A stretch of 64,000 nt of DNA from Fervidicoccaceae archaeon (GTDB lineage: Archaea; Thermoproteota; Thermoprotei_A; Sulfolobales; Fervidicoccaceae): positions 124,001 to 188,000 of the forward strand of contig JAVYOA010000009.1 of the NCBI GenBank assembly GCA_038734945.1. Direction: 5' to 3'. How positions within the stretch are numbered: the first letter of the stretch is position 1; each line of letters starts with the position of its first letter. The position numbers and the translations under genes were made by a program. Below are positions 10,284 to 15,536 of this stretch, piece after piece. The notes below the pieces were generated by a model that saw only the letters and a program-made list of their open reading frames with translations, was not told the origin of the DNA and ran no database searches.

Positions 10284-10440
10284 TTTAATATAACTCCCTC
10301 CAAATATTCTCCTATTTTCGTGGGATTCATGTGGTTAAAGCTTTCAAAAGTTTTTATTTATAAACTTTTGTCTCTATTTTTTTATTAAATAATAGTAATC
10401 AGCTTGAAAAAAATAATTTTTAAAAGTACTTTTTTGAAAA

Positions 10441-10950
10441 TTATTCAATAATTTTTAGGAAGGCCTCCATCCATTGTGGAAGATCATCAGGTATTCTTGC
10501 AGTAACGACCTTTCCATGCACTACTGTTTTCTCATCGATCCACTCGGCTCCAGCAGCCCTCAGATCATCAGCAATTCCTGGATAGCTTGTTAGCTTCATC
10601 CCTCTAGCTCTTTCTGCTGTTATCAAAAGCTGTGGTCCATGACAGATGGCTGCTACAGGCTTTCCTGAATCAATAAAATGTCTCACTATTCTGATAGCAT
10701 CCTCCCTTGCTCTCACCCTTATTCTTTCCGGCCCCCTTCCTCCTGGTATAACAAGCGCATCAAATTTTGAAGGATCAACATCCTTCATGGATATCGCCTT
10801 CAACCTGTAACCGTTTTTCCCCTCAACTTCTCCGGAAGAAGGGGCAGCAATCGTAACATCATATCCCTTCTCCAGAAGCCTATAGTATGGATATAGAGCC
10901 TCTATATCCTCGAATTCAGGACCTACAATGATTAGGATTTTCTTCCCCAT
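10441..10950 (-). CDS. pfpI: PfpI/DJ-1 family protease/deglycase
   Basis: FEDIE, IPGGRGPE, AAICHGPQ; start at MGKK after a GGTGA RBS. Confidence 0.88.
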   Translation of the reverse strand: MGKKILIIVGPEFEDIEALYPYYRLLEKGYDVTIAAPSSGEVEGKNGYRLKAISMKDVDPSKFDALVIPGGRGPERIRVRAREDAIRIVRHFIDSGKPVAAICHGPQLLITAERARGMKLTSYPGIADDLRAAGAEWIDEKTVVHGKVVTARIPDDLPQWMEAFLKIIE

Positions 10951-11249
10951 TCTATTCACCAATTTATATTTCCAGCCGTTGAAGTAAAATTCATGATATA
11001 TGTATTTTGAGAGAGCTCTTAACAATAGTCAATCAAGCATTACCAGCACTCTTCAAATGCTATATCAAGCCGGATCTTCAATTCTAACTTCATGGAAAAA
11101 TGCAGCAGAGCATCCAAGATTGAACCGAGTATATATGCTAAGTATATGAACAATGCTCCCCGGTCTTAGCAAGTGGCCGAACCAACAAAAGAATAAAATC
11201 AAACGACTAAGTCTTCTGAAAAGTGCAAAGAAATGAGCTTTGAGCAAGC

Positions 11250-12386
11250 CTAAGCGCTCTCATTTTTCAACAAAAAATAGATCTTCTTCTTCCTTTTTCC
11301 ATCCATCTTATACATTGAAGCAACCATCCCCAGCCTCTCCAAAGAAACCAGAGACTTGTACACCCCCCTAAGTGTATATTTTCCCAATCTTTCCCATACC
11401 TCATAGGCAGTGCCCTCTTTAATTTCCCTTAGAACTTCAACAATCTCATCTGTTAGTTTAGATTTTCTTGCTCCTAATGGCTTCGGTCTATTGCTAGCAG
11501 CAGTTATTATTGCTATAGATTTTCTCTCCTTCCTCTCCCTAAGAGCAGCAAGGGATGCAGCAGAAATCAGCTTAGTCTTTATTCCAGCTTTTGCTAGCTC
11601 AATCATCTCGCCAAGCGCTTTCTCTCTGCTAACATTAACTACTCTTACATCATCTATATGCTTCAATATCTCTGGCTGCTGTCCTCCCTCAAGCTGAACA
11701 GCGACTACTTCTATGTTCGAATCCACGCCAGCTTGTCTTAGATCTTCCCTTCCCTTCCAGATCGAGAGAGCTAACAATCCTGTTTCCGCTGGGACAAAGA
11801 CTTTTCCCTCACGAAATCCTCTCTCCAATAACTCAAATGTTATTGTCTTTAGACCCTCTATGGTAAGGGGGTTAGCATAGCTTAGATATCCCCCAGAAAC
11901 ATTGAAAGTGATGTTTGCTCCCAATTCTGTTAACAGTAGAACCTCATCCGGATCCACCTGCTCTGGATCTCCTAAAATTACCTCAACATCAGCAATTCCC
12001 ATCAAGTAGCTCACGAGAGAGTATGTGAAATCTCTTGAGTAGCTTATCCTCACAGCCTTTCCTGGCTCGCTTGAGAGGATATAGCTCGAAATCATCGCAG
12101 AGGACCTATCAGCATAGCTACCAGTGGGATTTCTAGTTTCAAGCTTTACTCTGACATCACCTGCTTTTCTTATCGGAGTTATTCCTTCGCCAAGGCTTAT
12201 TTTGCGCACAAAATTAGGAAGCATCGAAGAATATCTCCATATGTTAGGAACGTTCTGTGCGACTCTCCATTTCAATTCCCTTATCCTCAGAATGGGAACT
12301 CCATCGCAGTTCTCACAGCTGAGATAGATCCCTTCTCGAGTTATTCCACAAGACAGGCACTCAGTCAGAATCGAACCCTGATCCAC
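11250..12386 (-). CDS. Threonine-synthase-like (PLP fold II) protein lacking the catalytic Lys, with C-terminal winged HTH
   Basis: N-terminal CxxC..CxxC, IWRY, SLGEGITP, NPTGSYADR (canonical NPTGSFKDR), EGLKTITFE; C-terminal TAYEVWERL..TLRGVYKSLVSLERLGMV..RKKKIY. Confidence 0.75.
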   Translation of the reverse strand: MDQGSILTECLSCGITREGIYLSCENCDGVPILRIRELKWRVAQNVPNIWRYSSMLPNFVRKISLGEGITPIRKAGDVRVKLETRNPTGSYADRSSAMISSYILSSEPGKAVRISYSRDFTYSLVSYLMGIADVEVILGDPEQVDPDEVLLLTELGANITFNVSGGYLSYANPLTIEGLKTITFELLERGFREGKVFVPAETGLLALSIWKGREDLRQAGVDSNIEVVAVQLEGGQQPEILKHIDDVRVVNVSREKALGEMIELAKAGIKTKLISAASLAALRERKERKSIAIITAASNRPKPLGARKSKLTDEIVEVLREIKEGTAYEVWERLGKYTLRGVYKSLVSLERLGMVASMYKMDGKRKKKIYFLLKNESA

Positions 12387-12393
12387 TACTAGT

Positions 12394-12987
12394 TCATCTC
12401 TTCCCCAAAGTTAAAATATACCTGTGAAGGCTGTAGTCTCCCGTTATTTCTGGATGAAAGGTCACAGCAATGACATTTTTCTGAATTGCGGCAACACCCG
12501 TTCTTCCATACGGGGGGAAGTCCAAATAAGATATTATCCTAGCTGAGCCCCAAGCTTGATCTATAGCTGGGGCCCTTATGAAAGCTGCCCTCACTTTCCC
12601 AACCCCTTCCACTTCTACAGATGTTTCAAACGACTCTCTCTGTCTACCGTAAAAATTGCGCACGACCGAAATGTCCATAACGCCGAGCAAAGGCTGCTTA
12701 ACTTCTCCCACTCTTCTGTCTGTGACCCTCTTGGCTAGCAAAATTGCTCCAGCACAGGTTCCCAGCACAGGCATTCCCTCTAATGCTAGTTCTCTAACTC
12801 TCTCCTCCAATCCTGCTCTTGACAGCAATTTACCAATAGAAGTAGACTCACCCCCGGGAATTATCAAGGCGTCAATTCCCTCCAAGTCCATAGGTTTCTT
12901 CACATAAACAGGTTCACCTCCAATTTCTCTGACAATTTCTGCATGTTCAAGGAAGTCTCCTTGGACAGCTATAATTCCAATCTTCAA
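12394..12987 (-). CDS. pdxT: PLP synthase glutaminase subunit
   Basis: QGDFLEH, IPGGESTS, GTCAG, RNFYGRQRESF, FHPE. Confidence 0.95.
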   Translation of the reverse strand: MKIGIIAVQGDFLEHAEIVREIGGEPVYVKKPMDLEGIDALIIPGGESTSIGKLLSRAGLEERVRELALEGMPVLGTCAGAILLAKRVTDRRVGEVKQPLLGVMDISVVRNFYGRQRESFETSVEVEGVGKVRAAFIRAPAIDQAWGSARIISYLDFPPYGRTGVAAIQKNVIAVTFHPEITGDYSLHRYILTLGKR

Positions 12988-12991
12988 TTTA

Positions 12992-14008
12992 TTACACCCC
13001 CCTAACCTGCATGAGCTCTTCAGGTCTCAGCTGCTTCAAGTCTATACCTTCCAAAGCTCCTCTCTCTGAGACCATTGATTGTGCTTCTGCTACTGCTTCA
13101 GGATCATCCCAATGAGTAGTTGCTATAACTATCGCTCTCGCTCTGTTTTCAGGATCCGCGCTCTTGAATATTCCAGAACCAACGAATATTCCATCTGCCC
13201 CCAGCCACATCATTAGGGCAGCATCTGCAGGAGTGGCTATTCCACCTGCAGCAAAATTAACTACTGGGAGCCTACCAAGCTTAGCAGTGAGAAGAGCGAG
13301 CTCATAGTTTACCTGGTTTTGCCTTGAATATGACAGAATCGCCTCAAAATCTCCTGCCTGGGCATATCCTCTAAGGATGGAGATATCTCTGTTAACCAGC
13401 TTTATGTGCTTCACGGCCTCCGCAACATTTCCTGTTCCCGGCTCACCTTTCGTTCTTATCATTGCTGCTCCTTCTTCAATTCTCCTGAGGGCTTCAGGAA
13501 GATTCCTAGCCCCATTCACAAACGGCGTCCTAAACTTCCATTTATCAATGTGGGCAGACTCATCTGCTGGTGTTAGAACTTCGCTCTCGTCAATTAGATC
13601 GACACCGAGCTCCTCCAATATTCTTGCTTCCCATTCATGAGCAATTCTGCACTTGGCTGAAACGGGAATCGTTATGCTGTCCATTACCCTCTTTATAATG
13701 GAAGCATCAGCGGTCCTCGCAACTCCTCCTGCCTTTCTGACATCGTAGGGAAGCTTATCGAGGACCATCACTCCAACTGCTCCTGCATCCTCAGCAATTT
13801 CAGCTTGTCTCTCATTTGTAACATCCATTATCACCCCACCCTTCAGCATGGACACAAATCCGTAGTTAACAAGCGGAGTGGAAATTCTTAATGGGAAGAG
13901 CTCCTTTCCCTCCTCTTTTATGAGATCTCTCTGTTCAAGAAGGGAATAGATGAGCTCCTTCAATCTATCCAAATAGACATACGAATCTATGAGTTTCAAT
14001 TCCCTCAC
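12992..14008 (-). CDS. pdxS: PLP synthase lyase subunit
   Basis: [56 protein letters not shown]. Confidence 0.96.
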
Positions 14009-14044
14009 TGATTAAGAGGTAAATTGAAGAAAATAAATATACTT

Positions 14045-14060
14045 AATTGAACGTTCAATT
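14045..14060. promoter_or_regulatory. Perfect 16-bp palindrome AATTGAACGTTCAATT, candidate operator upstream of pdxS
   Basis: Exact inverted repeat just upstream of a minus-strand TATA-like tract (about 14032-14041) in a divergent intergenic region. Confidence 0.45.
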
Positions 14061-14101
14061 TCTTCTGAGAAACTCTTTTATTCCTTGTTGCGTAAAAAGC
14101 A

Positions 14102-14479
14102 ATGGGGTATACTAGTTTGGACGGCTCCACGGTTATACAGTACATGGCATACATTATGGCTGCCATGTCTGTAGTCACTATAGCTTATGCAGTGGTCAAC
14201 TACAAGCAGCAGACTAAGGCGCTTAAGCTGTATGCCGAATATATAAGAATGACTCTCGATCTCCCAGAGGTCAAGAAGTTCACGGAAACTAGAAAGCGAC
14301 CCAAAATAGATGTCGGTGAAGATAGAGAGGGTAAGAAGGTCCTGGTAAGGTATTATGTGAGGGAAATGGACAGAGATCATCCCAGCGTTACCATTTCAAT
14401 AGATAAAGCTACCAAGAGAATTCTCAAAACAGAGGTAAAGGGAGAAAGCGAAGGGAAGAAAGGTGAGCAGAGAAAGTAG
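14102..14479 (+). CDS. Hypothetical protein with one N-terminal TM helix
   Basis: ORF overlapping the GTPase gene; hydrophobic residues about 11-31. Confidence 0.6.
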   Translation: MGYTSLDGSTVIQYMAYIMAAMSVVTIAYAVVNYKQQTKALKLYAEYIRMTLDLPEVKKFTETRKRPKIDVGEDREGKKVLVRYYVREMDRDHPSVTISIDKATKRILKTEVKGESEGKKGEQRK

Positions 14480-15536
14480 CACGAATAAGAACTTGCCTGC
14501 TGATGCAGAGCTCAGGAGGCTACATCTTTCCCCATACGAGGAAATATATGAGAAGATTTACAGGAGAATAGGGAAACTGATAGAGAAGCAGAAAAAAGGA
14601 GAAGCGAAGGACAGCATGGATGAGGCACTGGAAATAGTGAACACGACCTTTAACATAATTCACGAGAAGTTAAAATCATATGAAAAATTTTATAGAATAG
14701 TTTCAAAGAGAGATGACCTGAGGGCATACATCTCCATAGTTCTCGGTGAGCAGGCTCTAAATAGTATTGAGCGGGCTGCAAGGCTAGATGGCAAAGTAAG
14801 ACAGCTCTATTCTACTTTAAAGAATGAGCTTCTCTCTGGGGATAGGAGAAATCTTAGGAATAAGGCTCTAGAGATATCTTCTCGATTGATATCTATAGTT
14901 AGGAGGAACAGAAAGCTTCTCTCCGAGGTTCTCGAGATAAAGAAAGAAGCTCTCCTATTTCCAGATATCTCGAGCAAGGTAACTATTGTCATAGCAGGTG
15001 CTCCAAATTCAGGAAAGAGCACTCTTGCTTCGAGAATATCTAATGCAAGGACAGAGATAGCTGAATATCCATTTTCCACAAAGATAGCTGTACCAGGAAG
15101 GTTTCTCGCTGAGGACATCCTGGACATAGCAGTCCTTGATACTCCAGGAATAATACATGAGAGCCTCAGCGAAATGAGCCTTTTCGAGAGAAGGGCAGTA
15201 GCAGTTCTAAGAATGTCAAGAGGGATCCTACTATTTCTTATTGATCCAACGGACTCCGCAGCTTTATCTCTGGATGAGCAGATCAAGATTCTCTCCAGAT
15301 TTAGAGAAGAAGTAGCTGAGCTCATGGTGATTGTGAACAAGGTGGACGCAGTAAATGAAGAAAAGCTCTCCATCGTTAGAGATGAGATCAAAAAATATAT
15401 TGGAAATGAGAGCGTTTATTTTATAAGTGCGACAGAGAGAATTGGACTGGAGCCTCTGATAAAGGCTCTGCAGAACAGAGCTAGAGAGATAATGTTGAGA
15501 GGATTAGATAGGAGAGGTGCTGAATTTGGAAATTGA
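14463..15536 (+). CDS. NOG1-like GTPase
   Basis: GAPNSGKST, YPFST, DTPG, NKVD, ISA; helical N-terminus. Confidence 0.8.
   Translation: MSRESSTNKNLPADAELRRLHLSPYEEIYEKIYRRIGKLIEKQKKGEAKDSMDEALEIVNTTFNIIHEKLKSYEKFYRIVSKRDDLRAYISIVLGEQALNSIERAARLDGKVRQLYSTLKNELLSGDRRNLRNKALEISSRLISIVRRNRKLLSEVLEIKKEALLFPDISSKVTIVIAGAPNSGKSTLASRISNARTEIAEYPFSTKIAVPGRFLAEDILDIAVLDTPGIIHESLSEMSLFERRAVAVLRMSRGILLFLIDPTDSAALSLDEQIKILSRFREEVAELMVIVNKVDAVNEEKLSIVRDEIKKYIGNESVYFISATERIGLEPLIKALQNRAREIMLRGLDRRGAEFGN

Follow-up and report, generated by a model that had tools for sequence, protein, structure and literature searches.

A lysine-less threonine-synthase-like protein with a winged helix as the probable regulator of vitamin B6 synthesis and uptake in thermophilic Thermoproteota

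We analyzed a stretch of 64,000 nucleotides (nt) of contig JAVYOA010000009.1 from a Fervidicoccaceae archaeon (GCA_038734945.1), hereafter the window, in whose positions coordinates are given, and focused on a gene that we call X (11250-12386, minus strand), an open reading frame of 378 residues that combines an N-terminal zinc ribbon, a lysine-less threonine-synthase-like domain and a C-terminal winged helix. Our main conclusion, to which we assign a probability of about 0.78, is that X is a one-component transcription factor that acts at a palindromic operator and governs a vitamin B6 regulon, with its dead fold-type II domain as the B6 sensor. X lies behind the two genes of pyridoxal phosphate (PLP) synthase on the same strand: pdxS, the lyase subunit and first gene of the operon (12992-14008, minus strand; NF003215, 452 bits against a cut-off of 395), and pdxT, the glutaminase subunit (12394-12987, minus strand; TIGR03800, 183.4 bits against a cut-off of 105.55), both identified by exceeding NCBIfam equivalog cut-offs. 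An earlier note on this DNA had placed X third in a pdxS-pdxT-X operon with gaps of under 10 nt, and had proposed a B6-linked regulator that joins a lysine-less fold-type II domain to a winged helix, as an analogue of bacterial PdxR; the gaps measure 4 and 7 nt, and the comparative evidence laid out below supports the proposal.

The candidate operator is a perfect 16-bp palindrome, AATTGAACGTTCAATT, at 14045-14060 (core 14047-14058), 37-52 nt before the pdxS start. Reading from it toward the GTG start codon of pdxS, the palindrome is followed by AAG and then by a TATA-like box, tatatttatt (14032-14041, minus strand), 24-33 nt upstream of that codon, and the 6 nt between this box and the operator core are where a B recognition element (BRE) would lie. 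With up to one mismatch allowed, the 12-bp core TTGAACGTTCAA occurs once in the window against a chance expectation of 0.15 (13 of 100 shuffled sequences contained at least one occurrence), and the perfect core is present as a single copy in the 1.34-Mb genome.

We then asked how widely gene order and operator are shared. In species-representative genomes, 224 stretches encode a relative of X, and the best 80 of them come from Fervidicoccaceae, Desulfurococcaceae, Pyrodictiaceae, Ignisphaera, Acidilobaceae and Caldisphaera lineages as well as from Vulcanisaeta, Thermoproteus, Methanomethylicales and Conexivisphaera-like lineages. Both pdxS and pdxT stand beside X in at least 42 of these 80 loci (35 in the order pdxS-pdxT-X and 7 in the order X-pdxS-pdxT), a lower bound, since X lies near a contig end in several of the others; in one more locus, a pdxT-like match is all that stands beside X. 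Among the 42 linked loci, 37 have a pdxS start and at least 90 nt of upstream sequence (four with a cut pdxS and one with a short upstream region were dropped), and in each of the 37 the core lies at -39 to -56, matched perfectly in 19, with a single mismatch in 12 and with two in 6, compared with 0 of 35 control windows at -490 to -401 of pdxS at the same limit of two mismatches. The aligned sites also share TAA followed by TTA(A/T) at a fixed spacing 3' of the core, which holds the operator at a constant offset from the presumed BRE and TATA box.

The presence of the operator follows the presence of X across the phylum. Searching 301 of its genomes with a profile of X and a PdxS query, we found X in 31 at no less than 192 bits, a score reached by each fragment of the gene in G078, where it is split over two contigs; all other hits scored 153 bits or less and were partial. 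Apart from the split gene and that of G099, which matches up to profile position 320 only, the X hits are full length. pdxS was found in 141 of the 301 genomes, 17 of which have X. In all 16 of the latter that remain when the window's own genome is set aside, the palindrome, with no more than two mismatches, lies at -32 to -52 of pdxS, versus none of 64 genomes without X, where the best sites have three (13 genomes), four (26) or five (25) mismatches at scattered positions; these 64 are part of the 124 genomes with pdxS and without X, chosen mainly among those that rank highest in PdxS similarity. The separation of the operator by presence of X is thus complete. It extends to seven of the 16 genomes (G051, G139, G107, G115, G059, G160, G208) in which X is not adjacent to pdxS and lies far away or on another contig, and the 64 genomes without X include one of the archaeon's own family (G295) as well as the sister genus (g36), in the same family, of a genus that carries X (g55). 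Counted anywhere in the genome, the perfect core occurs in 14 of 31 genomes with X vs. 27 of 270 without; the reversed core, used as a control palindrome, occurs in 1 of 31 and, counted by eye, about 30 of 270. One-mismatch genome scans taken alone gave counts equal to those of the control pattern in five of the genomes with X, and only promoter-placed one-mismatch sites were followed up.

Changes in the operator are matched by changes in X. The second residue of the predicted recognition helix, Arg340 (codon at 11367-11369, minus strand), is present in 13 of 13 genomes with the operator centre GAACGTTC, while in all four genomes with TTAAACGTTTAA upstream of pdxS the corresponding residue is Gln (three genomes) or Leu (one). 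The variant TTAAACGTTTAA, found in these four genomes of one family, departs from the standard core by having A for G and T for C symmetrically in its two half-sites, and a preference of Arg for G and of Gln for A is textbook knowledge. In G115, which is among these four genomes, TTAAACGTTTAA occurs in three perfect copies and its control not at all: one copy lies at pdxS, one inside a gene, and one 46 nt upstream of a 474-residue permease gene, together with a TATA-like box. This permease is 61% identical to a permease of G051 that has a standard operator 33 nt upstream, and the two form one orthologous group with a permease of G198 (51% identity between the G198 and G051 proteins), so that two promoters have changed in step with the recognition helix of X. 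This parallel between operator and recognition helix ties the operator to X, not to another factor.

Beyond pdxS, promoter-placed copies of the operator stand before transporters of four types, ECF, MFS, APC and ABC. One of the six one-mismatch sites in the archaeon's own genome is placed at a promoter, namely ATTGAACATTCAAT followed by aaatattttata, about 50 nt upstream of a gene for a 441-residue MFS transporter (G000:C9:46772-48097, outside the window). The other five were set aside, one lying between convergent genes (C2:352542), three inside genes (C2:65750, C2:67647 and C9:487224) and one between genes without promoter placement (C5:2946), as was a high-scoring site at C4:189, inside an open reading frame, from a weight matrix trained on 37 sites of which three were mis-extracted. 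In other genomes, the operator occurs with an MFS transporter gene followed by X (L005 and L006, confirmed by Pfam; L007 shows the same motif-to-X spacing, its intervening gene not having been scanned), before ECF S-components (PF07155) with their ATPases (G003, G238 and G126, as well as L059 and L062, where they lie directly behind X), before an APC-type permease with a DUF998 gene (G051, G139, G131, G107, G220), before an APC permease and a second MFS transporter in G198, and before ABC binding proteins (G062, G078). The PdxS query detected no pdxS in 14 of the 31 genomes with X (including G003, G062, G238, G198, G078 and G054), and five of these (G003, G062, G238, G078 and G198) have X together with the operator at a transporter promoter, as is expected of a vitamin regulon in auxotrophs. 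An NCBIfam search for the substrates of the transporters returned sub-threshold, non-specific matches only.

The central part of X is a degenerate version of a threonine synthase. X matches Pfam PALP at 64.5 bits (cut-off 35) and scores only 19 bits against TIGR00260 (cut-off 167.1), 115.4 against NF004170 (cut-off 421), which is its best threonine-synthase model and matches best over residues 10-159 only, 77.8 against NF005035 (cut-off 301) and 60.7 against NF006205 (cut-off 358), so that by score it is not a threonine synthase. Sequence-only searches of the PDB with the whole of X were weak (best E 0.025), which made fold searches necessary. An AlphaFold (AF2) model built on a 37-sequence alignment reached a predicted local distance difference test score (pLDDT) of 90.5, and its best Foldseek matches are the solved threonine synthases 2c2g, 6nmx, 2zsj, 1uim and 2d1f (E about 1e-13); together with the PALP match, this places X in fold type II (tryptophan-synthase-beta-like). 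By fold search and alignment, the degenerate domain, the presumed ligand sensor, spans residues of about 48-300 (11487-12245, minus strand), and it is preceded by a zinc-ribbon motif of the form CxxC...CxxC (residues 10-27; 12306-12359, minus strand), whose cysteines C10, C13, C24 and C27 are invariant in an alignment that includes true threonine synthases.

An alignment of X with the canonical threonine synthase (ThrC) of its own genome, that of Pyrococcus and other relatives reveals what has been lost. The segment NPTGSYADR of X stands opposite NPTGSFKDR in solved threonine synthases and in the own-genome ThrC, which puts Ala92 (codon GCT at 12111-12113, minus strand) at the position of the lysine that forms the Schiff base with PLP. 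The substrate loop reads SYSRDF in X vs. ASTGNT in the own-genome ThrC, the phosphate loop VPAETGL vs. PVGNGGN, the conserved Glu of the E-x-x-S-A motif is replaced by Lys, and X is shorter by two segments, of about 20 and 36 residues. None of the 37 aligned family members has the Schiff-base lysine (Ala in 24, Ser in 6, Met in 5, Thr in 1 and Val in 1), and neither loop of X has the form seen in threonine synthases. T295 of X, at the position of the Thr in the T-G-x-G-L-K motif of ThrC, which we take to face the cofactor ring, is invariant, and together with the retained N-P-T-G-S and D-R residues this suggests that a remnant of the cofactor site survives. Family members were collected by a word-indexed protein search, which returned 42 proteins at E ≤ 1.3e-44 that cover most of X before a gap to 8.4e-20, and by an exhaustive search, which returned 36 representatives at E ≤ 1e-30; the family alignment holds 37 of the 42, with two identical to the window and four short ones excluded.

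The last 70 residues of X form three helices and a beta hairpin in the model, and we assign residues 308-374 (11265-11465, minus strand) to a winged helix-turn-helix, by its H-H-H-E-E order of elements in DSSP and by Foldseek, with residues 339-351 as recognition helix. Folded alone (pLDDT 89.4), this domain matches Stf76, YodB, PadR, Phr, MecI and Fur in Foldseek at template-modelling (TM) scores of 0.65-0.85, and the solved PadR proteins 5x11, 9qbd, 5zi8, 3hhh and 8ioi at 0.70-0.80, which identifies its fold as a winged helix. By sequence, whole X scores 12.3 bits against Pfam PadR (PF03551), below the gathering score of 27; of 40 family members, 13 give sub-threshold matches to PadR with their C-terminal domain (E ≤ 0.01, best E 0.00015) and 12 to TrmB; and a profile of the domain matched PDB sequences of Fur (E 0.014) and PadR (E 0.15). 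This sequence evidence is sub-threshold but consistent, and in the 37-sequence alignment of the family conservation is highest at the winged-helix motif T-A-Y-E-I-W...Y-T-L-R-G-V-Y-K-A-L. What the earlier note had read from the sequence of X thus holds: its ThrC landmarks reappear in the PALP and threonine-synthase matches, the Ala in place of the Schiff-base lysine (NPTGSYADR, GCT) and the degenerate loops (SYSRDF, VPAETG) stand in the alignment, and the roughly 65 C-terminal residues that it likened to a winged helix fold as one separately. Its own doubt, that the C-terminus might not be a helix-turn-helix, was answered by the fold search with a winged helix, and the conservation that it had asked about was found both for linkage to pdxST and for the loss of the lysine.

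On these sequence grounds X is not the threonine synthase of the organism, because a canonical ThrC with the lysine and all motifs is encoded elsewhere in the genome (which comprises 9 contigs), on contig C2 (L207:33-1217:-), and is 47.6% identical to Pyrococcus ThrC. ThrC and X share their overall fold, the N-terminal zinc ribbon and the motifs GEG.TP, K.E..NPTGS..DR and EG.KT; they differ in that X lacks the Schiff-base lysine and the substrate and phosphate loops, carries two deletions and has gained a DNA-binding domain. A second ThrC-like gene of 345 residues in the same genome (G000:C2:200068-201105; L208:119-1156:+) keeps the lysine (NPSGSFKDRG).

The nearest relatives of X by sequence are proteins of 424-468 residues in the NF004170 (PRK05638) group, which carries the NCBI name 'threonine synthase' and which X, at 115.4 bits, does not join. 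Like X, these proteins combine a zinc ribbon, a threonine-synthase-like domain and a C-terminal winged helix, and the seven examined (P0109-P0121) lack the lysine (Arg in four, Ile, Thr and Tyr in one each). Unlike X, they retain the S-x-G-N substrate loop, a phosphate loop of the form G-S-G, the T-G-x-G-L-K motif and the two segments absent from X, their winged helix exceeds the Pfam PadR cut-off in five of the seven (e.g., 45.8 bits in P0114), and Arg340 of X corresponds to Gln in their recognition helix. Two of them, P0116 and P0118, exceed the NF004170 cut-off (427 and 423 bits) with Arg for the catalytic lysine and a PadR-type winged helix, and the naming of the group as threonine synthase looks like a systematic misnaming. 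In three NF004170-group loci (L213, L214, L218) an ECF S-component and an ATPase are encoded behind the gene. One genome, G235 (L218, L181), has an X accompanied by pdxST and a perfect operator, and in addition a long paralogue of NF004170 type next to an ECF transporter; the two proteins may divide control of synthesis and uptake between them.

Two further observations concern individual members of the X family. The X homologues of G051 (C1:344152-345240) and G188 (C60:9452-10573) each contain one in-frame TAG, which could reflect a sequencing error, a recent pseudogene or read-through; G051 keeps perfect operators at pdxS and at the permease. In three scanned loci of Caldisphaera/Acidilobus type (L021, L026, L040), where X lies away from pdxST, a ThermoDBP-related gene (PF10015) follows X on the same strand, and no operator was found within 5 kb of X.

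Taken together, the conserved operator at pdxS and at transporters in genomes with X only, its covariation with the recognition helix and the domain anatomy of X, a dead fold-type II domain joined to a winged helix, indicate that X is very probably the transcription factor of a B6 synthesis and uptake regulon. We infer that X binds DNA, that it dimerizes, as the palindrome implies and as threonine synthases do, and that a B6 vitamer is its effector, with the identity of the ligand as the weakest step. In the mechanism that we propose, the winged helix would bind TTGAACGTTCAA where the operator abuts the BRE/TATA region of the pdxS-pdxT-X promoter, probably with two copies of X joined in a dimer through their threonine-synthase-like domains, and in the archaeon's own genome X would probably also bind the one-mismatch copy before the MFS transporter gene. 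The dead fold-type II domain would sense B6 supply by holding PLP or another vitamer without a Schiff base, so that B6 synthesis, B6 uptake and X itself would be tuned to that supply. Because the operator sits directly against promoter elements, where bound X should collide with TFB and TBP, we lean slightly toward repression in which a B6 vitamer serves as co-repressor. Sites directly upstream of the BRE are used by archaeal activators as well, and activation by ligand-free X is a tentative second option, modeled on PdxR, an activator whose action is reduced by PLP.

Several observations weigh against the regulator reading or limit its reach. The covariation rests on one lineage and on one or two evolutionary events, and the genomes compared are related, so that the counts given above overstate independence. 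An operator was found within 160 nt upstream of X in only one of 35 loci in which X is unlinked to pdxST (L001, where a longer reading frame puts the operator about 45 nt before a possible GTG start of X); it is lacking before X in the other 34, and autoregulation of unlinked X was discarded as a general feature. Two promoter-placed operator sites have no obvious link to B6, one at a radical SAM gene (G054) and one at a tRNA methyltransferase/CoA-transferase pair (G224), and the C-terminal domain alone reaches 18.6 bits against the PadR cut-off of 27. Finally, the degenerate phosphate loop with its Glu (PAETG) and the Lys in place of the E-x-x-S-A Glu do not obviously accommodate a phosphorylated ligand such as PLP, and the ligand may be a non-phosphorylated vitamer or another metabolite.

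This last point leads to the alternative that X acts at the operator in response to an amino acid, a phospho-amino acid or a PLP-amino acid adduct, not a B6 vitamer, which we regard as unlikely. With the phosphate loop, the lysine and two active-site segments lost and an acidic residue in the loop, the pocket has been remodeled well beyond what is needed to stop catalysis, and the co-regulated APC permeases resemble amino-acid permeases, if at family level only and below NCBIfam cut-offs. Yet among biosynthetic genes we found pdxST alone as a target, the remaining targets encode transporters of kinds that vitamin regulons typically contain, ECF S-components among them, T295 is invariant, and X persists with transporter targets in genomes where the PdxS query finds no pdxS, which fits control over the uptake of what the pathway produces.

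Much less probable is that a different regulator binds the palindrome and that X is a carrier or store of PLP, or an accessory of PLP synthase, whose winged helix serves protein contacts. An accessory might well be co-transcribed with pdxST, as X is in 42 of 80 loci, and might lack an operator of its own when unlinked, as X usually does, but among the genomes compared none without X has the operator at pdxS, and those with an unlinked X do have it; no gene with a DNA-binding fold other than X recurs next to the operator; the change in the recognition helix of X coincides with the symmetric half-site change at two promoters; and the five genomes without detected pdxS have X and the operator at a transporter promoter. 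We give almost no credence to X still being a threonine-synthase-like enzyme that works without the lysine, with an incidental C-terminal domain: the kept fold and the invariant K81, E83, N86, D93, R94 and K180 of the family could be cited for it, against the absence of the lysine from all 37 members, the loss of substrate and phosphate loops and of about 56 residues of the catalytic domain, scores far below every threonine-synthase cut-off, and the canonical ThrC in the same genome.

As a transcription factor, X invites comparison with PdxR/MocR of Bacteria, in which a GntR winged helix is joined to a fold-type I aminotransferase-like domain. MocR proteins keep their Schiff-base lysine, whereas X is without it, and X further differs from PdxR in being archaeal, in its fold type (II, not I), in its winged helix, which is C-terminal and PadR-like instead of N-terminal and GntR-type, and in its operator, a single palindrome of 12-16 bp at the BRE/TATA region. 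X matches neither GntR nor Aminotran_1_2, and thus does not have the MocR/PdxR domain architecture. Two papers describe PdxR as pairing, like X, a sensor derived from a PLP enzyme with a winged helix, encoded beside pdxST and controlling it (PMC5320631, PMC10450172), and in other bacteria PdxR-type regulons, according to these and a survey of PLP synthesis and salvage, also take in B6 transporters (PMC5320631, PMC10450172, PMC9997740). Operator distribution, regulon content and covariation agree with a PdxR-like control of pdxST and B6 transport by X, as predicted from sequence comparison. The likeness of X and PdxR is convergence, without sequence relationship.

Archaeal vitamin regulators with an enzyme-type domain and a winged helix include ThiR. 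Another is RbkR, whose riboflavin regulon is reported to have been found by comparative genomics of the operators that precede genes for biosynthesis and transport (PMC5397151); X differs from it in enzyme fold (riboflavin kinase, still active in RbkR) and in vitamin. The terms pyridoxal, pdx and threonine synthase have 0 occurrences in the RbkR paper (PMC5397151), term look-ups in PMC2872624 and PMC11237513 gave nothing relevant to an X-like regulator, and the full-text literature searched, which leaves most subscription journals and supplements outside, describes neither a threonine-synthase-like regulator nor an archaeal B6 regulator. Passages of the survey of PLP synthesis and salvage name only bacterial PdxR-type regulators, and name B6 transporters as a gap (PMC9997740). 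As a one-component regulator, X would represent a new family within a type whose principle is already known. We consider it fairly likely, with less confidence than for the regulator reading itself, that X is the first archaeal B6 regulator and a non-covalent sensor built on a threonine-synthase pseudoenzyme, convergent with PdxR, which pairs Arg340 with the G of TTGAAC and Gln with the A of TTAAAC, and that the NF004170 group likewise consists of lysine-less regulators of vitamin uptake.

The surroundings of the operon hold two further genes. Opposite pdxS, a 125-residue open reading frame (14102-14479, plus strand) with one hydrophobic segment and no Pfam family begins 42 nt from the other side of the palindrome, so that the operator sits in a divergent intergenic region of 93 nt and could affect this frame too, if the gene is real. 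Downstream of X by 224 nt and on the same strand lies a gene of the DJ-1/PfpI family of deglycases/proteases (10441-11025, minus strand; TIGR01382, 177 bits against a cut-off of 139), whose linkage to X was not seen in the other X loci compared. Three hot-spring metatranscriptome runs from one study gave 0 reads each over 10300-14600, a result with no bearing on expression.

If the regulator reading is true, it would provide a testable operator and regulon for many thermophilic Thermoproteota and candidate B6 transporters of four unrelated types, and would give reason to revise the annotation of the X family and its longer relatives, which at present carry the names 'pyridoxal-phosphate dependent enzyme' or 'threonine synthase'. 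The paired variants of operator and recognition helix would make a compact system for the study of protein-DNA recognition at high temperature, and X would stand as a clear case of an enzyme fold turned sensor, convergent with the MocR regulators.

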